Positions 8,571 through 19,220 of a DNA stretch of 64,000 nucleotides are shown piece by piece. The notes below the pieces were generated by a model, which was given only the letters and a program-made list of their open reading frames with translations, was not told the origin of the DNA and did no database searches. The position numbers and the translations under genes are program-made. The DNA is from an uncultured Alphaproteobacteria bacterium (lineage in GTDB: Bacteria > Pseudomonadota > Alphaproteobacteria > MPNO01 > UBA2964): assembly GCA_951812775.1 (NCBI GenBank), contig OX638326.1, forward strand, positions 2,241,391 through 2,305,390, read 5' to 3'. Positions within the stretch are counted from its first letter, which is position 1. Every line of letters starts with the position of its first letter.

Positions 8571-9557
8571 ATGAAACGCCTATTAACGGGAGTCGCTGTC
8601 GCCGGAATGGTGATCGGCGGACTTTCAGTTGCCGCCAACGCAGCAACGATCAAAATTTTGGCCAGCTGGAACAAAAACGTTTGGCCGACCTATGTGGTGC
8701 TCGACAGCTTTGTAAAGAACGTTAAAAAGCTGGGTGGCGATAAAATCAAAATTCGGATCAGTGGCCCAGAAGTGGTCCCTGGTTTCCAGCAGCTACAACC
8801 GGTTAAAGCAGGCGTTTTCGATATCCTGTTTACCCATGGTGTCTATCACATGGGATCCAAGGGACTGGCCGCCATTATGGATGCCATGAACTCTGACCCG
8901 GTCGGCAAACGGACATCGGGCGTTTGGGATCACCTCGACAAATTCTATCAGAAAACCCATGGGCTGAAGTTGCTGGCCATTTCACCCAACAGCACCAAGG
9001 GCTACCACATTTTCCTCAAGAAACCGCTATCGGGTAAAGGCGATTGGAAAGGCCGTAAAATCCGTGGCACGCAGACCTATCACGGTGTGATCCGTCTGTT
9101 CGGCGGCGAACCGGTTGTGATGCCTGGCTCGCAGGTTTATTCCGCATTGGAGAAAGGCGTTGTTGATGGCGCAGCATGGCCAGCCGCGGGCATGCTTAGC
9201 ATGAAGCATTTCGAAGTAGCCAAGTACAAGGTTCGCCCAACTTTCGGCACCTCAACTTTGCCCTTCCTTATGAATCTCAAAAGCTTCAACAAGCTGAGCA
9301 AGGAAAAGCAGAACATCCTGCTGCAAGCCGGTTACATGACCGAGCTTGAAATGCCTTGGGTTGGTGATCAGGTACAGGCGAAGGAAGATGCCGAACTTGC
9401 CAAAAAAGGCGTCAAGATTACCAAACTGCCTGCCGACCAGGTGGCCAAGATGCGTAAGGCTTTCTCGGAAAGCATCTGGGCTCTGGGCGCGAAGTGCTGT
9501 GGCGCAGACGCCAAGAAGCTTCGTGAACTCGCCGAAAAGGCTGGTCTATCCTGGTAA
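8571..9557 (+). CDS. dctP: TRAP transporter solute-binding protein, DctP family
   Basis: Signal peptide, DctP-like length (328 aa), followed by DctQ and DctM genes. Confidence 0.75.
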   Translation: MKRLLTGVAVAGMVIGGLSVAANAATIKILASWNKNVWPTYVVLDSFVKNVKKLGGDKIKIRISGPEVVPGFQQLQPVKAGVFDILFTHGVYHMGSKGLAAIMDAMNSDPVGKRTSGVWDHLDKFYQKTHGLKLLAISPNSTKGYHIFLKKPLSGKGDWKGRKIRGTQTYHGVIRLFGGEPVVMPGSQVYSALEKGVVDGAAWPAAGMLSMKHFEVAKYKVRPTFGTSTLPFLMNLKSFNKLSKEKQNILLQAGYMTELEMPWVGDQVQAKEDAELAKKGVKITKLPADQVAKMRKAFSESIWALGAKCCGADAKKLRELAEKAGLSW

Positions 9558-9583
9558 AATAGATCGATGAAATTGAGACGGGC

Positions 9584-9612
9584 CACGGGACATTCAGTCT
9601 CGTGGTTCTCTC
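9584..9612 (+). terminator. intercistronic hairpin (ccacgggac/gtctcgtgg) followed by a T-rich tract between dctP and dctQ; possible attenuator
   Basis: 9-bp stem with one mismatch and a 5-nt loop, then ttctctcttatttc. Flanked by 14-bp direct repeats gatcgatgaaattg at 9563..9576 and 9623..9636. Confidence 0.35.
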
Positions 9613-9629
9613 TTATTTCTGATTGATCG

Positions 9630-10151
9630 ATGAAATTGTACCGGACATTTGAACGCGGTCATGACTGGCTGACAGTCGCGGGGTATTACCTCGCCTGCAT
9701 CGCTCTATCGATAATTTTCGGCGCCTATATTATCGAGGTTTTCGCCCGCTATTTCTTTAATGCGCCACAATGGTGGGCCAGCGAGGCCGTGTCCTACTCG
9801 CTATGCGCCTGCACCTTCCTGATGATGCCCTACGTTACCTGGAAAAAAGGGCACGTCGCCGTCGCTCTGATTTTTGACCTGTTGCCAACAAATGGCGCGC
9901 GCGTTGCCATATGGTTGACCTATCTGCTCGGAACGCTTTTCTGCGGGTTTGCAACCTGGATTTCCATGGATGAAACCGCGCGGCAATTCATCAGCAATAT
10001 TGATCTCATGGCAGTCAAACCGGTTCCTAAATATTTGATTTCAATTTTCATTCCATTTGGTTTTGCAAGCTCAACTTTGCACTTCATGCGTCTTCTCGAT
10101 TTTAAGGCGATTGACCCTGATGCCTCCGCCGGCGGCTTTGGTGAGAGCTGA
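9630..10151 (+). CDS. dctQ: TRAP transporter small permease, DctQ family
   Basis: 173-aa protein with four TM segments, between dctP and dctM. Confidence 0.75.
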   Translation: MKLYRTFERGHDWLTVAGYYLACIALSIIFGAYIIEVFARYFFNAPQWWASEAVSYSLCACTFLMMPYVTWKKGHVAVALIFDLLPTNGARVAIWLTYLLGTLFCGFATWISMDETARQFISNIDLMAVKPVPKYLISIFIPFGFASSTLHFMRLLDFKAIDPDASAGGFGES

Positions 10152-10154
10152 TCG

Positions 10155-11465
10155 ATGGGTTGGGAAGCCACATTAATCACCGCATTGCTGCTTCTCCTGG
10201 CCGCTTTTATGTCGGGTGCGCCGCTCTTTGTTGCTTTCCTGGCGATCAACCTCACCGGCGTTGCCATTTTTCTTGGCCCTGCCGGGTTTGGCATGGTCGC
10301 CAACTCAATTTTCGACACCACGAACAATGCCGACATGGCGACAATTCCGCTCTTTATTCTGATGGCCGAGGTGCTGTTTCGCTCCGGCACTGTCGACATC
10401 CTGTTCGATGCTGTCGATAAGTTGATCGGCCGTATGAAAGGTCGTCAGTATGTTCTGACAATCTCTCTTTCCACGGTGTTTGGGGCTTTGTCAGGCGCCG
10501 GAATGGCGGTGGCTGCCATGCTGGCCCGGACCATTTTTCCAACCATGCGCAATCGCGGATACGACTCCAAACTTGCCATCGGGAATATTCTCGCCGGTGC
10601 CAGCCTAGCGCCGATTATTCCGCCGAGCGTCCTGGCCATTGTCATTGGGACACTTTCCAACACATCGATTGCCGGCCTGCTGATCGGCGGCATCATTCCC
10701 GGTCTGATGCTTTCCGCAATGTTCCTGACCTATACGATGGTGCGCGTAAAACTGAATCCTTCGCTCGCACCTGACGATAGTGACGATGAAACCCCAAAAA
10801 TTTCGGCCGGAGAGAAGCTGCGGGCGCTCGCGGGCTGTCTGCCTTTCGCCCTGATCATCTTTTCGGTCATGGGATTTATCATGTTCGGCATCGCGACACC
10901 TTCCGAGGCAGCGGCAACAGGTGTACTCGCGGCGATTATCACAGCCGCGTATTATCGAAAGTTGAGCTGGAAGATGATCACCGAGTCGCTCGGCACGGCA
11001 GCTTTCATCACCAGTATGATCCTGCTCATTATGGCGAGTTCGCGGATGTTTAGTCAGTTGCTGGCTTTCACTGGCGCGACAACCGAACTTACAAACCTGA
11101 TCGTCAACCTTGGTTGGCATCCGATGCTGATGTTATTCATCATGATGGCGATCCCGTTCATCCTTTGCATGTTTATCGATCAGATTGCCTTGATGCTTGT
11201 GGTCATTCCGATCTATCAGCCATTGCTGACGACCCTCGGATTCGATCCGATTTGGTTCTGGCTCATCATGCTGTTGAATGTAACGGTCGGCGGTATTTCG
11301 CCGCCCTTTGGCTATGTAATATTCGCCTTCCAGGGTGCAGCAGATAAAGTTCAAATTGCCGAAGTCTTTAAGGCATCCTGGCCATTTGTCGTGTTGTTTC
11401 TTCTGGGCATGGTGGTGCTGGCCGCCTTCCCGTCGCTGGTCACCTTCCTGCCAGGGCTGATATAA
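10155..11465 (+). CDS. dctM: TRAP transporter large permease, DctM family
   Basis: 436-aa polytopic permease. Start lies 4 nt after the dctQ stop. Confidence 0.8.
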   Translation: MGWEATLITALLLLLAAFMSGAPLFVAFLAINLTGVAIFLGPAGFGMVANSIFDTTNNADMATIPLFILMAEVLFRSGTVDILFDAVDKLIGRMKGRQYVLTISLSTVFGALSGAGMAVAAMLARTIFPTMRNRGYDSKLAIGNILAGASLAPIIPPSVLAIVIGTLSNTSIAGLLIGGIIPGLMLSAMFLTYTMVRVKLNPSLAPDDSDDETPKISAGEKLRALAGCLPFALIIFSVMGFIMFGIATPSEAAATGVLAAIITAAYYRKLSWKMITESLGTAAFITSMILLIMASSRMFSQLLAFTGATTELTNLIVNLGWHPMLMLFIMMAIPFILCMFIDQIALMLVVIPIYQPLLTTLGFDPIWFWLIMLLNVTVGGISPPFGYVIFAFQGAADKVQIAEVFKASWPFVVLFLLGMVVLAAFPSLVTFLPGLI

Positions 11466-11481
11466 CCCAATAGCTGGGATG

Positions 11482-12075
11482 CTATTTAACAGCCTCAAGA
11501 TTGAGGCTCATCAGGCGACCACTCTCTTTGTCCATATGCGGTAAGTGCGCTTGTGAGTAATCGTCCACATCCGCATGTTCCGTATTCTGCCAGTCCCAAC
11601 GGTGCACATCCGAAAACCCTGCCTGCAGCAACAAACCCGACAAGAGTGGCGCATCGAAAATCATGTGATGGAAATCGGTTTCGTCTCACTGGCCACCGCA
11701 AACAAGGCCGACCAGGCCGGATAAGCCATCCTTAAGGCCTTGCTCATAATAGATCGCGGCACAGGCTGCAAAATCGGGAACCGCCAGACGCAGGACGCCG
11801 CCGGGCTGAAGCACACGGCACCATTCCTGCAGCACATCAACAATTTGAAACCGGCCAAAATGTTCCAACACGTGGCAGGCATAGATCAACTCGACTGTAT
11901 CGTCTGCGACAAAAGTTAACTTATCGACGGAACAAAGTTGATCGACATGCGGATAGGGCTGAATATCGACATGATAAAAGCCCGGGATGAACTTTCCACC
12001 GCATCCGAGATGTAGCCGTTTCATATTGGGCGTTACGTCGACAATGTTATTTGACCGCGGCAACGAGTCAGCCAT
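11482..12075 (-). pseudogene. class I SAM-dependent methyltransferase (type 11-like) with an in-frame TGA at 11686..11688
   Basis: The two ORFs 11686..12075 and 11482..11664 share one frame and are separated only by TGA (...LVCGGQ*DETDFHHMIFDAPLL...). Together they give a ~197-aa methyltransferase-sized product. Confidence 0.55.
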
Positions 12076-13796
12076 GCGGATTTACCTCTTTACACCAATG
12101 ACACCACATATGCCTGATAGCATCTTCCATCGCCGTAACAAATCTCTTTTGATCCGCTAAGGGAGACGCAGCTGCCCGCTGGCGCAATGATTTGCGGTAA
12201 GTCGCAATTTGCTCCGGCGCCTTAGCCAAAGCCTTCGCTAACTCTAAATATTGCTGTTCATCCGCAGCCACTAATCCATCATGACCAATTGTATTTAAAA
12301 TGCCGGTCGCCATACGCGACACATATCGATCACCAGCAATCGTGATGGTTGGCACCCCCATCCACAAGGCCTCACAAACGGTCGTCGCACCCGAATAGGG
12401 GAAACTGTCGAGCATGATGTCGATCTTTCCGAACAGAGAGAGATGGCCTTGCTTGTCAGAAAGGTGATCAAACAGATCCAGACGCTCTTCCCCAATATTT
12501 TTGTCGGCAAAGATTGAAAGAACACGCTGACGAAGTTGAGGATCTCTCAGCCCCCGCCCTTTGATCACCATTCGGGAATTTGGCACGACCGTCAGGATAT
12601 TTGCCCAACACCTCAAAAGACGGTCATTTATTTTACTGAGATTATTTAGCGATCCGAACGTGACGAAGCCGTTTTCCTCAATAGGGGCTGAATCTGGTAA
12701 CGGCATTTGATCTTCCGGCGCATAGCAAAATAACGACTCCGGCAAATGGAGAAGCTTCTCGTTGTAATGTGCGTCATGTTCCGGAGGATCTATCTGTTTG
12801 TCCGTGATCCGCCAATCTAAGGCATCCATACCCGTTGACCCACCATATCCCAGCCAGCTCTCCTGAACCGGTGCAGGGCGTTCTGCAAAGGCCAGCAACC
12901 GGTTTCCCGCCGTATGGCCGGCAACATCTATAAGAACATCTGTGCGGTCTCGCCGAATTTGCGCCGCCAGTTGATCGTCAGCCATGCCAAACGTACGACA
13001 CCAATGGTCAGAGTTCTGTTCGAACCAATTTGTCTGGCCATCGATACGCGCAACTTCCGCATAGGAGAAAATTTCAACCTTTTGCCGATCATGTTCCGCG
13101 TAAAGTGGTGTCAGAAATCGACCGACCGCATGATCGTGGAAATCGGGCGATACATACCCAACCCGCAAGCGACGATCTTTTGACGGTTCGTTTGGGTGAG
13201 AAAAACCCTTCTGCAGTCGAGGCAGCGCATGTCGCTTATTCCAGCTCCGGGCCTCCGCCAAGATGCTTAGCGGCGACACCTCCGGCTCCAACGCAATCAC
13301 CCGACGAAAGGCATTTATGGCATCGATAGGACGCCCATGAGCGCGGAAAAGATTTCCAAGATTATTCCAGGCGGCCGGCATATTGGGATTGAGGTCGAGC
13401 GCCGTTCGAAAAGCTATTTCAGCCTCGAAGAATTGCCCTTGCGCTTCCAGAACGCCGCCGAGTGTCACTTGGGAAATCGCGTGACAATTGTCGATCGATA
13501 TGGCTTCGCGGCAAATGCGCTCCGCTTCTTCGATCTTGCCCTGCATCGCCAGCACATTTGCGAGATTATTTCGAGCCGAGACCTCTTTGGGAGCAATGGA
13601 TACCGCTTCGCGGAAGATTGCTGCCGCCTCATCAAACTGCGCCTGTAGATACAGGCCCGTGCCGAGATTGTTGTAAGCATCAAAATATTGCGGCTCGATA
13701 TCAATCGCCCGGCGAAATGCCGCCTCTGCCTCTACGGACTGACCATTTCTATTCAGGGCAATACCAAGATTATTGTGCGCTACAGCATAGTCAGGC

Positions 13797-15088
13797 GGGC
13801 GCCTCTAAAAACCTCGTCATTTTGGCCATGATCTGCTTCACTTCTCTCATCGGCTTGATGGAGGATGGAATGTCGGATCAGCCCGGTTTTTTCGATCTTG
13901 ATGAGCGTTACGCGGCGCTGTCGGCGGCGGGTGATCCGTTGCTTCGGCTTGGTGAGTTGGTCGATTTCGAGTTGTTTCGCCGGCCCTTGATCCGGGCGCT
14001 ACGTCGCTCGGACCGGCGCCAGGGTGGCCGGCCTCCCTATGACCCCGTTCTGATGTTCAAGATCCTGGTGTTGCAGGCACTATACAATCTCTCGGATGAT
14101 CAAACCGAGTTCCAGATCCGCGACCGGCTGTCTTTCATGCGGTTCCTGGGCCTGGGGCTTCACGCCCGGGTGCCGGACGCCAAGACGATCTGGCTGTTCC
14201 GTGAGTTGCTGGTGCAGGCCAAGGCGATCGAGGCGTTGTTCGATCGCTTCGACGAACACCTGCGCGGCCATGGCTACCTGGCGCTGTCGGGCCAGATCGT
14301 CGATGCCACGATCGTCGCGGCGCCCAGGCAGCGCAACAGCGTTCCGGAGAAGGTGGCGTTGAAGGCCGGCAAGGTGCCAGAGGAGTGGAAGGACAAGCCG
14401 GCCAAGCTGGCCCAGAAAGACCGGGATGCGCGCTGGACCATGAAGCGTGGCCGAGTGAAGCGTCTGGAGGATGGGCACCCCAAGGGGCCGGAGATCATGG
14501 TGCCGGCGTTTGGCTACAAGAACCACATCTCCACGGACCGGCGGCACGGGTTGATCCGCAAGTGGCGCGTCACCGATGCCGCCGCCAATGACGGCCGCCA
14601 GCTCGCCGGTCTGATCGATCCGGAGAACACGGCGAGCCCGGTCTGGGCGGATACCGCCTATCGGTCCAAGCGTAACGAGAAGATGCTGGCGCGCCAAGGC
14701 AAGCGCTCCCAGATCCACTTCCGCAAGCCGCGCGGCAAGCCGATGCCGGCGACCCTGGCCAAGGCCAACGCGGCGCGCTCGGCGGTACGCTCCGCCGTCG
14801 AGCATGTCTTCGCCCATCAGAAAGGCTTGATGGCGCTCTCGGTTCGGACCATCGGCATCGCCCGGGCCGAGGCCAAGATCGGCATGACCAATCTGGCGTA
14901 TAACATGCGCCGTTTCCTCTGGCTCCAGGGGCGAAGTGCGCCCACATGACGCCGGAACGGCCGGTTCGACCGGCTAAACCGATCAAATCGACGCAAAACG
15001 GCTCGAAAAACCGACACTCAGACGCGCCCACCCGGTCAAATCACGCCGCAAGCGGCCAAACCGAACGTTCTTCGAGGTGTCCAGGCAC
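13797..15088 (+). mobile_element. IS5-family insertion sequence (boundaries approximate)
   Basis: Contains a DDE transposase with the YNLSD motif. The host TPR gene is split exactly here. The ends begin GGGCGC.../...GCGCCC (imperfect inverted repeats). Exact termini and target-site duplication could not be fixed by eye. Confidence 0.65.
13858..14949 (+). CDS. IS5-family DDE transposase
   Basis: ...YDPVLMFKILVLQALYNLSDDQTEFQIRDRLSFMRFLGL... resembles IS5 InsH-type transposases. 363 aa counted from the ATG at 13858. Confidence 0.8.
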   Translation: MEDGMSDQPGFFDLDERYAALSAAGDPLLRLGELVDFELFRRPLIRALRRSDRRQGGRPPYDPVLMFKILVLQALYNLSDDQTEFQIRDRLSFMRFLGLGLHARVPDAKTIWLFRELLVQAKAIEALFDRFDEHLRGHGYLALSGQIVDATIVAAPRQRNSVPEKVALKAGKVPEEWKDKPAKLAQKDRDARWTMKRGRVKRLEDGHPKGPEIMVPAFGYKNHISTDRRHGLIRKWRVTDAAANDGRQLAGLIDPENTASPVWADTAYRSKRNEKMLARQGKRSQIHFRKPRGKPMPATLAKANAARSAVRSAVEHVFAHQKGLMALSVRTIGIARAEAKIGMTNLAYNMRRFLWLQGRSAPT

Positions 15089-15585
15089 GTACTTTACAGC
15101 CTTTTGGTAGGCTTTAATCACGCCGTCGAAATCTTCGATCTGGCGCAAAATATTTCCATAATTGTTGTGATATATCGCGTTGGCCGGATCCAGTGACAGA
15201 GATCGCGCGACGAGCGCCAGAGCCTTTTCTGTTTGCCCCATGTCGCCAGCGATAATGCCGAGAAAGTTGAGCGCATCTGGAAGGTCTGGATATCGATCCA
15301 GCACCGATTGATAAAGACCCGCGGCCCGCGTCAGATCACCAGCTTGATGGAAACCAACGGCGGTCTCCATATCCCGCATGACATCGGATGTAAGATTGGC
15401 GGCAGCAGTTAGGGCTACGCCCTGTTTACGAGCTTTTTTAGTAGTTTTCGCAGATTGGCGGCGCTGAGCGCGATTCATGTACGGGTCCCCAAAGCCGTTA
15501 AACAGCGGCGATGGGGTTACCCTAAGAGCAATCCGTTAAGGCGCGCTTAACCATAGAGGTCCAAAGAGAACCTCGGAAATCAGGC

Positions 15586-17073
15586 TTAGGCGCTTGCAGC
15601 GGCTCCGGCAGAGGTTCCGGCGAGTTTGCCAAAGACTGACCCTGCCGTGAGGCCTGATCCACCGGGATAGTTGAAGTAGAACAACCCACCAACGCACTCG
15701 CCTGCAGCATAAAGGCCTTCCATCGGCATTAAATCAGTGTCGACGACCTGCCCCTCGGTATTGATGCGCAGCCCGCCAAACGTGAACGTCACACCGCATG
15801 TGACCTGATAGGCCTCAAAGGGTGCGGTATCAATTGTCTGTGCCCAGTTTGATTTATTGATCTCAAGACCTTCCGTGCAACGTCCATCTTTGACGTTCGG
15901 ATTATATTCAATGTCCTGATTGACCGCTGCATTGTACTCTTTGATTTCCTGGAGGAAGGCTTCCTTATCGACACCTTCCAGTTTGTCAGCCAGGTCCTCG
16001 ATCATATCAGCCGTAACTTTAGTAACCTGGCGGATCGAATATTCGTCACGCTTGAGATGCGCCACTTTGGCATCAAGAACCTGCCAGGCGAACTGCGCCG
16101 GCTGCTCAAGAATAACACGACCATATTTTGCATAAGTGTAGTTCCGGAAATCCGCCCCTTCATCGACAAAACGTTTGCCGGTCGCGTTGACCATGATGAA
16201 GAACGGATAGGAGTGCTTCTGGAACTGATCACCAACAGCGAGGTCGCCAAATTCCGGTGCGTTGCGATCCCAGCCCACAGCGTGACAGCCTGACCAGTTA
16301 CCATATGTCGCCGCACCGATATCTGTCGCCATACGAATGCCGTCACCGGTGTTAAAGCGTGTGCCCCGAATTTTTGCCAGATCCCAGCCCGGACCAAGAT
16401 AGCGAGTCCGCCATTCAGGGTTTGCCTGGAAGCCGCCGGACGCCATAACAACCGATTTACAGCTCAGCTCTTTGACTTCATTGCCCTGCTTGATCCGAAC
16501 ACCGCAGACCTTTGCACCATCGAACACCAGGCTCATCGCCCGGGTCTCGAACATGGTCTCAATGCCATCTCTCTTGGTAATCTCTTGTTGGGCTTCATAC
16601 AGACCTGGGCCACCGCCGTTGGTTTCAACCGTCAGACCACCCCAAAACTTGAACTTGCCATCGATCTTAAAGGCCTGCCGTCCATAGATAGGCACGAACC
16701 GGATACCCTTTTCACGCATCCAAGTCAGTGTTTCGAGGCTGCGGGTAACAAGAGTTTCTGCCATATCCGGGTCCGTACGGAACTGGGTGACACGGAAAAT
16801 GTCATCGAAGAACTGATCCTGCGTATAGGTACCGAAATCTGTATCTTCGATTTCCTGGTCGGAAAGCTCTACAAGCTTCTGGATATCTTCGACACCATCG
16901 TAAACCACGCGCATCGCACCAGCGGTAAAGCGTGTATTGCCGCCAGCTTCATCTTCCGGCGCGCGTTCCAGCATGACGATTTTTTTGGCGCCAGCATCCT
17001 GGGCCGCCATTGCTGCACATGCTGCCGCGTTGCCCGCGCCAACGACAATTACATCATAATCCGTATCAGCCAT
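15586..17073 (-). CDS. FAD-dependent oxidoreductase, TcuA (tricarballylate dehydrogenase)-like / fumarate reductase flavoprotein family
   Basis: N-terminal DVIVVGAGNAAACAAMAA FAD-binding fold. Landmarks IRGTRFN, GVTFTFGGL and AAGE..GG match the TcuA family. 495 aa. Confidence 0.6.
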   Translation of the reverse strand: MADTDYDVIVVGAGNAAACAAMAAQDAGAKKIVMLERAPEDEAGGNTRFTAGAMRVVYDGVEDIQKLVELSDQEIEDTDFGTYTQDQFFDDIFRVTQFRTDPDMAETLVTRSLETLTWMREKGIRFVPIYGRQAFKIDGKFKFWGGLTVETNGGGPGLYEAQQEITKRDGIETMFETRAMSLVFDGAKVCGVRIKQGNEVKELSCKSVVMASGGFQANPEWRTRYLGPGWDLAKIRGTRFNTGDGIRMATDIGAATYGNWSGCHAVGWDRNAPEFGDLAVGDQFQKHSYPFFIMVNATGKRFVDEGADFRNYTYAKYGRVILEQPAQFAWQVLDAKVAHLKRDEYSIRQVTKVTADMIEDLADKLEGVDKEAFLQEIKEYNAAVNQDIEYNPNVKDGRCTEGLEINKSNWAQTIDTAPFEAYQVTCGVTFTFGGLRINTEGQVVDTDLMPMEGLYAAGECVGGLFYFNYPGGSGLTAGSVFGKLAGTSAGAAASA

Positions 17074-17154
17074 TTATTCGTGTTCCTCTGATCTCACCGG
17101 TCAAAATTATGACGTGGATATACCGGCTAACGCCCGCCGCGACAAGGGCGCGCC

Positions 17155-18255
17155 CTAAGAGTTGCAGGCGTTGGCAGTACGGGCTTTCTTTTCGGCGGTG
17201 GCGCCCGAATAGGCGTTCAACTCTGTTCTGGCGCGTGCTTCGGCGAGACGCGTGACCGGTTGGTTTTGCAGATTAGCCAACAGCCAATCGACGTCACTTG
17301 TCACATCCCCCCTGCCATCGATCCGCTGCGTCGATGTTGCCACGAGTTTTTCCGGTTTGAGCTGACCTAAAATAAATCGAAATGCATAGTTTGGCGTTAG
17401 CCCCATACGAAGGTCTGCAACGCTCACCTCATCGCCATTAACGATAATTCTGTAATAACCACGGCTAAACTTGGCGACCTTGGAAATTCGGCTGGCGAAA
17501 GGAGGACAGCTTTCAAATTTCAGATGTCGTGGATAAGCATAAAAAGTTGCCGTTTCTGGCCCGCCAAATATCGGCATATAGAGATTAAAGTAACGATCAC
17601 CATCGATACCGACGATGCGCCAAAAGAAAGAATTAAAAGGTGTCGGAATGGCCAATATCCTGTCCGGAGATATTTTCTTGTCGGCCAACAAGCTATTGGC
17701 GCGCTGCGTCATGACGAATTGTGCAATAGCAGTCCATCCAAGATAGACCGTCGTAAAACTAAGGCACACGACCTGCGTTTTCCGGAAACGATCCGACATA
17801 TTTCGTAGAAAAAAAGCCCAAACCATCACAACGAGAAGCGGCAATGTATACAGAGGGTCGATGATAAAGATTGATCCGAGGGCGACGGGGTCCGTCGAGA
17901 ATGGCCAGAATAGTCGCGTTCCATAGACCGTGATTGCATCCAGCAATGCGTGCGTGGTTAAACACAAAAACACCGCCGCCCAGATTTGGAAGGGCTGATC
18001 CCGCAGTCCCTTGAACATGCGGCGGATCACCTCGCCAAATACCGGAGTCAAAGCCGCGTGGACAAAAAGCGAATGGGTCCAGCCACGATGCTGGACAAAG
18101 GCCTCGATCGGATCATCGGGCGCAATAAAGACATCGAGATCAGGTAAAGTGCCCAACACACCACCAGTGAGCGCCGCCCGTCTGGGGCCAATTTTTCGAC
18201 CGAGAACCGCAACCCCGACACAGGCTCCCAGTGTAAATTGCGTAACACTATCCAT
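17155..18255 (-). CDS. membrane-bound metal-dependent hydrolase (DUF457/YdjM-like) with a C-terminal extension
   Basis: N-terminal His-rich TM region typical of DUF457 (..HRGWTHSLF..). 366 aa. Confidence 0.5.
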   Translation of the reverse strand: MDSVTQFTLGACVGVAVLGRKIGPRRAALTGGVLGTLPDLDVFIAPDDPIEAFVQHRGWTHSLFVHAALTPVFGEVIRRMFKGLRDQPFQIWAAVFLCLTTHALLDAITVYGTRLFWPFSTDPVALGSIFIIDPLYTLPLLVVMVWAFFLRNMSDRFRKTQVVCLSFTTVYLGWTAIAQFVMTQRANSLLADKKISPDRILAIPTPFNSFFWRIVGIDGDRYFNLYMPIFGGPETATFYAYPRHLKFESCPPFASRISKVAKFSRGYYRIIVNGDEVSVADLRMGLTPNYAFRFILGQLKPEKLVATSTQRIDGRGDVTSDVDWLLANLQNQPVTRLAEARARTELNAYSGATAEKKARTANACNS

Positions 18256-18311
18256 GACTGACTACTTCAATAACAACACTGACCGCTTATACGCTTGCTA
18301 ACCAACAACAG

Positions 18312-19220
18312 CTAGTCGTCGCTCGCGGCGGCGTTCCGCAAAACATCTGCGGCGATATTACTCAATGCAAGCGCTGACGGGCTGAGTGTCCGCCCGATAG
18401 GCCTGATAATCCCTATTGTCCGACTCACCACAGGATCGACGAGAGGCCGAAAAACCAGCTTAAGGTCCGGACGCTGCACTGTTGCCAGTTTGGGAACCGC
18501 TGAAACGCCCAACCCGTTTCCAACCATGCTCATTAACGTCGAAATATGGGCGACTTCATGGGTTCCCGCTGGCAACAGACCACTTTCCCCAAGGGCGCTT
18601 TCAAGCTTTCGCTGATTGCCAGCTTCCGCCCCCATTCGAATATATGTGTGTTTGCGAAGATCGGTCCAGGTAACACGCCGCTTCCGGGCCAGCGGATGGT
18701 CCTCCCGACAGGCGAGAAGGTAAGGGTCATCTATCAAAGGCTGATATTCTAAGTTGGGACGGTCTTCAGCCGCTAGGGCGATTGCAAATTCGGCATCCCC
18801 GGTCGTCACAAAATCCGCAACCTTTGGACCAACATCATCCATTACCCGCACGGAGACCGACGGAAATTGTTCGTTAAACTGCGCAATAACCCGCGGCAGC
18901 ACATTCTGGGCAATTGTCAGGACCGACGCCATAGTTACAACACCCGCCCGTTTTTCGATGATATCCTGAATATCGTCCATCGAGCGTTCAAATTCCCGGA
19001 CCATTCGCATGGCGGTCGGCAGAAACTCTTCGCCAATTGTTGTGAGCGCGACCGTCCGTGAGGTGCGGTCGAGCAACCTCACATGGAGGACGTCTTCCAT
19101 TTTCTTAAGACGTCGCGAGAGGCCAGATTGGGTAATCGCCAACTCTTCCGCTGCGCGATGAAAATTTTTTATCTCGGCGACCAGTACAAAGGCGCGCAAA
19201 TCTTCAATGCCTATTCTCAT
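18312..19220 (-). CDS. LysR-family transcriptional regulator
   Basis: N-terminal HTH (IKNFHRAAEELAITQSGLSRRLKKME) plus LysR substrate-binding domain. Divergent from the PrpF-like gene. Confidence 0.8.
   Translation of the reverse strand: MRIGIEDLRAFVLVAEIKNFHRAAEELAITQSGLSRRLKKMEDVLHVRLLDRTSRTVALTTIGEEFLPTAMRMVREFERSMDDIQDIIEKRAGVVTMASVLTIAQNVLPRVIAQFNEQFPSVSVRVMDDVGPKVADFVTTGDAEFAIALAAEDRPNLEYQPLIDDPYLLACREDHPLARKRRVTWTDLRKHTYIRMGAEAGNQRKLESALGESGLLPAGTHEVAHISTLMSMVGNGLGVSAVPKLATVQRPDLKLVFRPLVDPVVSRTIGIIRPIGRTLSPSALALSNIAADVLRNAAASDD

Follow-up and report, generated by a model that had tools for sequence, protein, structure and literature searches.

An IS5-family insertion sequence within a SPINDLY-like TPR/GT41 gene of a marine alphaproteobacterium: a probable gene knockout in a cassette at an early stage of decay

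A 64-kb stretch of DNA (the window, i.e., the whole stretch that was analyzed), taken from a 4,149,033-bp contig of a marine alphaproteobacterium, was found to carry a SPINDLY-like TPR/GT41 gene that is split by an IS5-family element. We consider it very probable that transposition of this element knocked out the GT41 gene at codon 132 and that the cassette formed by this gene and the overlapping downstream methyltransferase gene is now decaying. The case is a real but routine IS insertion, that is, an ordinary and well-understood gene knockout. The features of the locus are as follows.

15083..15478, minus strand: 5' part of the TPR/GT41 gene, native codons 1-132 (from the ORF and homologue comparison)
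12068..13796, minus strand: 3' part of the TPR/GT41 gene, codon 132 onward, with about 5 TPRs and the GT41 catalytic domain
13797..15082, plus strand: IS5-family insertion sequence, 1286 bp, 63.4% GC (ends fixed via relatives)
13870..14949, plus strand: transposase gene, 359 aa, intact (NCBIfam and Pfam models)
13797..13812, plus strand: left inverted repeat (IRL), GGGCGCCTCTAAAAAC (comparison with relatives)
15067..15082, minus strand: right inverted repeat (IRR), minus-strand reading GGACACCTCGAAGAAC (comparison with relatives)
13793..13796, no strand: target-site duplication (TSD) AGGC, left copy (single copy at the L001 empty site)
15083..15086, no strand: target-site duplication AGGC, right copy (single copy at the L001 empty site)
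13285..13286, minus strand: junction of a 51-bp in-frame deletion, with loss of 17 aa (PGNAMAHSNLLFSLALD in orthologs) at the TPR-to-catalytic connector
11482..12075, minus strand: downstream SAM-methyltransferase pseudogene, with an in-frame TGA at 11686-11688

The two parts of the host gene are represented by an N-terminal ORF (15041-15478, minus strand, 145 aa; P0136 in the public annotation) and a C-terminal ORF (12068-13555, minus strand; P0005, 492 aa, in the public annotation). The N-half reads ...YQKAVKYVP, followed by 13 IS-encoded residues (GHLEERSVWPLAA) and a stop at 15041-15043, and the frame of the C-half is open back to the junction at 13795, starting again at PDYAVAHNNLG. The original prediction, which had placed an IS inside a SPINDLY-like TPR/GT41 gene at 12068-15478, gave the ORF ends exactly, and its break between KAVKY and PDYAV was right to within two residues, as the true junction follows KYVP, with the Pro codon lying inside the duplicated AGGC. 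Both halves were recognisable, as had been claimed: when positions 13797-15086 (the IS plus one TSD copy) were deleted in silico, the halves joined up again in frame, midway through a TPR repeat, to give a single ORF of 2121 nt and 706 aa. The restored protein matched Pfam Glyco_transf_41 (PF13844) at 178 bits (cutoff 25) and many TPR families in addition, and the TPR array was fused to the GT41 domain in the restored ORF and in all orthologs; the present allele is split. One ortholog (P0001) matched Arabidopsis SPINDLY (SPY, 7Y4I; 8DTF is also SPY) over residues 31-718 at E = 7.6e-117 (~1e-116), and it also matched TtOGT (Thermobaculum, 5DJS), hOGT (human, 3PE3) and XcOGT (Xanthomonas, 2JLB). 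By these comparisons, the host gene is predicted to be a minus-strand gene for a SPINDLY-like TPR plus GT41 glycosyltransferase.

An uninterrupted version of this gene, encoding 723 aa, was detected in three related marine alphaproteobacterial contigs (L001, L002 and L003) that share the synteny LysR-YdjM-TcuA-GT41-MTase-DctMQP. The original prediction had named separate genes for the two halves in relatives as the finding that would speak against it, and what the relatives have is one 723-aa gene in the same synteny. The closest relative, L001 (85-86% nucleotide identity), provides a clean empty site across both junctions: it aligns to positions 19500-15082 and 13797-8827 of the window with an overlap of only 6 bp (L001 4813-4818), and AGGC is found once at this empty site versus on both sides of the IS in the window. 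A metagenome search with an exact 22-mer for the empty site as reconstructed gave no match, and no conspecific uninterrupted allele was found by this search, the nearest uninterrupted allele being 84-86% identical.

The ends of the element were set by comparison with relatives and not by inverted-repeat search. With only 12 of 16 positions matching between IRL and IRR, the pair was missed by an ungapped inverted-repeat search of the window. The same IR motif bounds the relatives L004, L077, L078 and L080, among others; L004 has perfect 16-bp IRs (16/16), a length of 1287 bp and the 4-bp TSD GGTC, and L077 is also 1286 bp long, with a transposase 94% identical to that of the window. Other 4-bp TSDs among the relatives are ATCT (L086/87) and AATT (L039). 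The IRR of the window copy is identical to those of L077 and L078. At its positions 3 and 5, the IRL departs from GGACACC, the sequence in the closest relatives; P0135, another copy in this genome (read-through peptide ...AGASKN), encodes the same variant. In three contigs of MAG BS301-5m-G13 the shared sequence begins exactly at GGACACCTCTAAAAAC. A parse with a 5-bp repeat (CAGGC) and a 1285-bp IS was dropped in favor of AGGC and 1286 bp because the ends of all relatives begin GG...CC. Thus, the terminal inverted repeats and 4-bp duplication for which a check had been proposed are present as imperfect 16-bp IRs and as AGGC on both sides.

The transposase scored 231 bits against NCBIfam NF033581 (transpos_IS5_4, IS5 family transposase; cutoff 140) and contains the Pfam domains DUF772 (PF05598, 3e-26) and DDE_Tnp_1 (PF01609, 9e-13), each exceeding its gathering score. 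Its length is matched by that of transposases in relatives (359-363 aa). When 22 relatives of 41-94% identity were aligned, the catalytic triad D145/D261/E311 was invariant or nearly so, and it is kept in the full-length window protein. Both the IS5 assignment and the intact transposase of the original prediction were borne out. Taken together, the model match, the DDE triad, the IRs, the 4-bp TSD and the repeated copies identify the element, at the level of sequence, as an IS5-family insertion sequence with a single transposase ORF. The 64-kb window was found to contain neither a second IS copy nor a GT41 paralog, and Rfam and tRNA scans of the window gave no matches.

Cut-and-paste transposition by a DDE mechanism is established for the IS5 family and would apply to the window element as well. 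The element would have transposed into codon 132 of the chromosomal SPINDLY-like gene, with the 4-bp AGGC duplication arising from a staggered cut in the target and subsequent gap repair. With the IS antisense to the gene, translation would be truncated after 132 native residues. On the minus strand, there is a stop 4 codons into the IS end, with the GTG at 13555 as the first start codon after it, and a promoter/terminator scan (sigma-70 consensus only) gave nothing above shuffled expectation. Since the N-half would be truncated and the catalytic part appears to be left with neither a start codon nor a recognisable promoter, the GT41 gene would have been knocked out. The translationally coupled methyltransferase gene, which overlaps the GT41 stop by 8 bp and matches Pfam Methyltransf_11, would probably have been silenced by polarity. 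A slippage-type 51-bp deletion may then have removed the helix that connects the TPRs to the catalytic domain, and the methyltransferase gene may have gained its nonsense codon as the cassette decayed.

The halves of the gene had been described as undegraded, and this part of the original prediction did not hold, as the C-half has the 51-bp deletion, with loss of 17 conserved residues. The deleted segment is present in 13 of 13 homologs, down to 44% identity, and is bordered in L001 by the direct repeats CTGGAGCC and CTGGATCC. The 17 residues align to SPY residues ~428-444, which cover the last part of TPR11 together with the first helix of the connector (PMC9715652), and the window allele thus lacks an intact TPR-to-catalytic connector. 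In addition to this deletion, a premature TGA interrupts the coupled methyltransferase gene downstream: the enzyme of relatives is 197-198 aa long with an Arg (AGG/CGT) at this codon, and a 129-aa fragment remains in the window. The claim of a recent insertion was upheld, with 24 amino-acid changes assigned to the window branch versus 31 to that of L001. All three lesions (IS, deletion and TGA) are taken to be recent, with ages that are short compared with the divergence from the closest relative known, since no excess of amino-acid substitutions has accumulated on the window branch. Long-standing relaxed selection on the GT41 gene was ruled out by these branch counts together with a dN/dS of 0.11 for the gene. 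By sequence, the cassette is judged to be pseudogenised at an early stage, and the window allele, which is split and lacks the first connector helix, is most likely non-functional.

The temporal order of the three lesions as presented above is one that we infer. It is possible, if rather unlikely, that the cassette was already dead through the connector deletion or the methyltransferase nonsense codon, and that the IS landed later in a neutral pseudogene. Two additional lesions do lie in the same two-gene cassette, and the sequence holds nothing that orders the three events. However, an in-frame deletion of 17 aa need not abolish function, the methyltransferase gene lies downstream, and no substitution excess marks a long prior period of neutrality. 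An IS insertion with polarity is also the simplest single cause that would relax selection on both genes together, and knockout by the IS remains our preferred reading. We regard as doubtful a further proposal, namely that the cassette is being lost under selection rather than by drift and that this IS lineage may have a real target preference. Its first part draws on the occurrence of three independent disabling lesions in a two-gene module for protein glycosylation within a time too short for excess substitutions, and its second part on the position of a second copy in the same genome, which also lies directly after ...CARGC.

The insertion could instead have made a functional truncated enzyme (2-5 TPRs plus GT41) with an altered substrate range, expressed by read-through or from an IS-borne promoter. 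IS5-family elements in E. coli are known to activate neighboring genes, and an ORF of 492-495 aa with GTG/ATG starts at 13555/13546 is still open. This outcome appears highly unlikely, however, as no promoter-like site reading outward was detected at the left IS end by the scan, which was for sigma-70 consensus only, and the fragment is missing the conserved connector helix. The truncation of the coupled methyltransferase also speaks against continued selection on the cassette.

The genome context of the element was considered with respect to its activity and to the quality of the assembly. At least three transposase loci are present on the source contig, with at most one amino-acid difference between them: the window copy (P0121), P0135, which is identical to P0121 but has another upstream flank, and P0133, which differs from the window copy solely by D3A. 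This copy number of at least three derives from protein-cluster records. The element is GC-rich (63.4% GC, with GC3 of 83%) compared to the host (52.8% GC). Recent activity is plausible based on the intact triad, the at least three near-identical loci and the GC content of 63% versus 53%; likewise, its standing as a GC-rich compositional outlier with at least three near-identical copies in the genome makes the IS look like a recent arrival that has been active of late. We infer that the element may still be competent for transposition. Counting against such competence are the IR pair, with its 12/16 matches, and the IRL, which is two positions off that of the closest relatives. The multiple copies in the genome, along with three contig ends of MAG BS301-5m-G13 that break inside the element and thus show related MAG assemblies breaking at the IS, are the grounds for suspecting an assembly artefact, in which a repeated IS was misplaced and the true chromosome has an intact gene. 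We judge this very improbable, as mis-assembly would not produce a perfect 4-bp duplication at the precise ends of the IS, the source is a single 4.15-Mb contig, and the locus has independent lesions that fit a dead gene. That the halves are naturally separate genes, one for a TPR protein and the other for a GT41 enzyme, and that an IS merely lies between them, as the two proteins of the public annotation might suggest, is hardly credible and was refuted by the in-frame rejoining in mid-repeat and the L001 empty-site alignments, in keeping with the identical synteny, the single proteins (695-735 aa) found in 5 of 5 close orthologs and 8 more distant homologs, the IS-encoded residues that end the N-half ORF and the missing start codon of the C-half at the junction.

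With knockout by the IS as the favored reading, the value of the locus is mostly one of annotation, and current understanding is unchallenged by it. The 145-aa and 492-aa CDSs, along with the 129-aa remnant of the methyltransferase, should be entered as pseudogene fragments of a single cassette disrupted by an IS, and exact ends, IRs and a TSD are now available for describing the IS. The locus also offers a dated example of a GC-rich IS newly entering a marine alphaproteobacterium of ~53% GC, and it suggests that a SPINDLY-like GT41/methyltransferase module, although conserved in relatives under purifying selection (dN/dS ~0.11), is dispensable in this lineage.

Compared to known elements, the window element is similar to the IS5 subgroup of the IS5 family, with a length of ~1.3 kb, one transposase ORF with DUF772 and DDE_Tnp_1, IRs starting GG, a 4-bp TSD, multiple copies and insertion into genes, features that follow the general criteria for the subgroup (ISfinder, Siguier/Chandler reviews). 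By contrast, its target AGGC departs from YTAR/CTAG, the preferred target of IS5 itself. A plasmid search turned up no near-identical named element, the best matches being ~77% over one third in Mesorhizobium and Agrobacterium; the closest full copies are metagenome/MAG sequences with transposases 81-94% identical. The combination of an IS, a small deletion and a nonsense codon with little substitution decay resembles the pseudogenisation by IS elements and the early decay of operons that have been described in many bacteria with a recent host restriction or an IS expansion. Here, however, genome-wide IS expansion is not indicated, with a single IS in 64 kb and at least three documented copies in 4.15 Mb.

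The restored protein is similar to SPY and OGT in that an N-terminal TPR superhelix is followed by a two-lobed GT41 catalytic domain. SPY is an O-fucosyltransferase that uses GDP-fucose and OGT uses UDP-GlcNAc as donor (PMC9715652); donor specificity varies within GT41 and the donors of bacterial GT41 enzymes are unsettled (PMC9715652). With the O-fucosyltransferase SPY as the nearest relative of solved structure (PMC9715652), the label 'O-GlcNAc transferase' is putative only. This bacterial GT41 protein is shorter than SPY/OGT (706-723 aa, with about 8-9 TPRs), and, unlike SPY/OGT, its gene is paired with an overlapping methyltransferase gene.

The TPR/GT41 gene on the minus strand was found to be divided into two open reading frames (ORFs) by a foreign block of 63.4% GC, compared to 52.8% for the remainder of the window. 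The features of the locus are as follows.

12068-13555, minus strand, C-terminal ORF of the split gene (495 aa from the first start codon; frame open back to 13795)
15041-15478, minus strand, N-terminal ORF of the split gene (145 aa)
13797-15082, IS5-family element (1286 bp; ends set by comparison with relatives)
13870-14949, plus strand, transposase gene (359 aa; product starts MSDQPGFFDL)
Left terminal inverted repeat (IRL), GGGCGCCTCTAAAAAC
Right terminal inverted repeat (IRR), GGACACCTCGAAGAAC
13793-13796 and 15083-15086, 4-bp target-site duplication (TSD) AGGC

The native part of the N-terminal ORF ends with ...YQKAVKYVP and is followed by 13 foreign residues (GHLEERSVWPLAA) and a stop codon; the C-terminal frame picks up at PDYAVAHNNLG, directly after a stop codon located four codons inside the foreign block. 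In silico deletion of 13797-15086 (the element and one AGGC copy) generated a single 2121-nt ORF of 706 aa, with many TPR matches and a match to Pfam Glyco_transf_41 at 178 bits (cutoff 25). By ORF ends, junction translation and this restored ORF, the coordinates and junction peptides of the original prediction were correct to within two residues. The source genome's public annotation presents the fragments as two ordinary proteins, P0005 (C-terminal, 492 aa) and P0136 (N-terminal, 145 aa), and not as a single pseudogene.

Search with the restored protein returned uninterrupted 723-aa orthologs at 84, 75, 74, 74 and 66% identity, as well as P0005 itself (100% identity) on the 4,149,033-bp contig of the source genome. 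On the contigs of orthologs P0001 and P0002, gene order was identical to that of the window (LysR, YdjM, TcuA-like FAD dehydrogenase, TPR/GT41, methyltransferase and DctM/Q/P), with the methyltransferase gene overlapping TPR/GT41 by 8 bp. The order from LysR to the TRAP transporter DctMQP (window 8571-19220) was strictly kept in three contigs of relatives, L001-L003, at 75-86% nucleotide identity. L001 DNA was 85-86% identical and aligned to window 19500-15082 and 13797-8827, with an overlap of only 6 bp in L001; this is a textbook empty site in which AGGC is present once. No conspecific allele was found by the restored-protein search or by use of an exact empty-site 22-mer against metagenomes.

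The transposase gene lies on the strand opposite the host gene. Its predicted assignment to the IS5 family was upheld by a score of 231 bits against NCBIfam NF033581 (IS5 family transposase; cutoff 140) and by matches to Pfam DUF772 and DDE_Tnp_1. Alignment with 21 relatives (41-94% identity) revealed D145, D261 and E311 to be (nearly) invariant; thus, the catalytic triad is intact. The 359-aa ORF is full length, and an intact transposase had been proposed. An ungapped repeat search reported no terminal repeats of the element, and its ends were therefore fixed by comparison with related copies. In three contigs of the alphaproteobacterial MAG BS301-5m-G13 (L073-L075), unrelated flanks meet at a common sequence with its first base exactly at GGACACCTCTAAAAACC. 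The copy in L004 (Rhodospirillales MAG; transposase 81% identical) spans 1287 bp, with perfect 16-bp inverted repeats (GGACGCCTCTAAAAAC) and a 4-bp duplication, GGTC, and that in metagenome contig L077 (94% identical) spans 1286 bp and shares its right end with the window element. These ends place the window element at 13797-15082. Its 16-bp inverted repeats match at 12 of 16 positions and AGGC is present at both junctions, which supplies the termini and 4-bp TSD anticipated by the original prediction. A 5-bp duplication (CAGGC) was rejected, as the extra C is the terminal C of IRR. Among related metagenome copies, perfect 4-bp duplications (GGTC, AATT and ATCT) were detected in L004, L039 and L086/L087; several others (L077, L079, L080 and L083) had no 4-bp duplication, and recombination between IS copies or chimeric contigs could account for such unmatched flanks. 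The last base of the left flank is mostly T, and the first base of the right flank mostly A.

Only one IS copy was detected within the 64-kb window. Genome-wide, a 90% protein cluster of the transposase included three records on the source 4.15-Mb contig: P0121 (the window copy), P0135 (identical, with an ORF that runs into a different upstream flank) and P0133 (D3A the sole difference). Thus, the genome harbors at least three essentially identical copies, a lower bound from protein records for the count that had been proposed. The read-through peptide of P0135 (...SYQ followed by AGASKN) revealed the same GGGCGCC variant of IRL, which therefore belongs to the transposed lineage and is not damage private to the window copy. 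By this peptide, the bases immediately ahead of the IS would read ...CARGC, and the window has CAGGC (13792-13796); these two cases are only a hint of a target-site preference. The GC-rich composition of the IS (transposase GC3 of 83% vs 52-65% in neighboring genes; genome of ~53% GC) suggests a recent arrival, horizontally acquired from a higher-GC donor. The L073-L075 contigs end ~130 bp inside a near-identical copy; thus, the element is multi-copy in that MAG and breaks its assembly.

Among solved structures, the ortholog was closest to Arabidopsis SPINDLY (SPY; 7Y4I/8DTF; E ~1e-116; residues 31-718 aligned), with human OGT, TtOGT and XcOGT next. SPY acts as an O-fucosyltransferase, and the sugar donor differs among GT41 enzymes (PMC9715652). 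Thus, the SPINDLY-like GT41 part of the predicted name is justified, with the Pfam match in agreement, and the O-GlcNAc label is not established.

The restored protein was 17 residues shorter than every ortholog. All 13 homologs compared, the most distant at 44% identity, retain the missing segment, PGNAMAHSNLLFSLALD, in which an A-x-S-N-L motif is nearly invariant. In the DNA, 51 bp are cleanly deleted, in frame, between window positions 13286 and 13285, in the minus-strand C-terminal half of the gene; in L001, CTGGAGCC and CTGGATCC border the stretch that is deleted here, a pattern suggestive of slippage between short direct repeats. In SPY, the segment corresponds to residues ~428-444, where TPR11 ends and the first of two helices connecting the TPR superhelix with the catalytic domain lies (PMC9715652). 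Downstream, the SAM-methyltransferase gene (11482-12075, minus strand), which overlaps the GT41 gene by 8 bp, has an in-frame TGA at 11686-11688 (AGG in L001 and CGT in L002, Arg in relatives) that cuts the 197-aa protein off at residue 129. The GT41 gene had a dN/dS of 0.11 (window vs L001), with 24 private amino acid changes on the window branch vs 31 on the L001 branch (outgroup L002), and flanking genes were alike. Point substitutions thus give no sign of relaxation, so the IS insertion, the 51-bp deletion and the TGA are all recent. The predicted recency of the insertion was borne out; the claim that the halves had not degraded failed for the C-terminal half. The cassette is in the first stages of pseudogenisation. 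That the IS landed in a gene already inactive is less likely than not.

The predicted N-terminal product would comprise 132 native and 13 IS-encoded residues, and the earliest start codons for the catalytic part are GTG 13555 or ATG 13546. A promoter scan for the sigma-70 consensus revealed no sigma-70-like promoter reading outward from the left IS end. A still functional truncated enzyme is unlikely, since the connector helix is missing, this promoter signal is absent and the partner methyltransferase gene is dead. Most likely, the glycosyltransferase would be lost through the insertion and the coupled methyltransferase by polarity; the methyltransferase nonsense mutation fits such polar loss. 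Mis-assembly as the source of the IS position is likewise unlikely, given that an exact TSD flanks the defined IS ends and that the gene shows independent signs of being dead. That the halves are naturally separate genes, the case that would have refuted the original prediction, is excluded, as the halves rejoin in frame and relatives carry a single 723-aa gene in the same synteny, with an empty site in L001.

Taken together, the locus is a real, cleanly bounded and ordinary IS5-family insertion in a SPINDLY-like TPR/GT41 gene. In the ISfinder classification, the IS5 subgroup is marked by a length of 1.0-1.5 kb, termini that start with GG and a duplication of 4 bp; the element is a new, unnamed IS of a kind already known.
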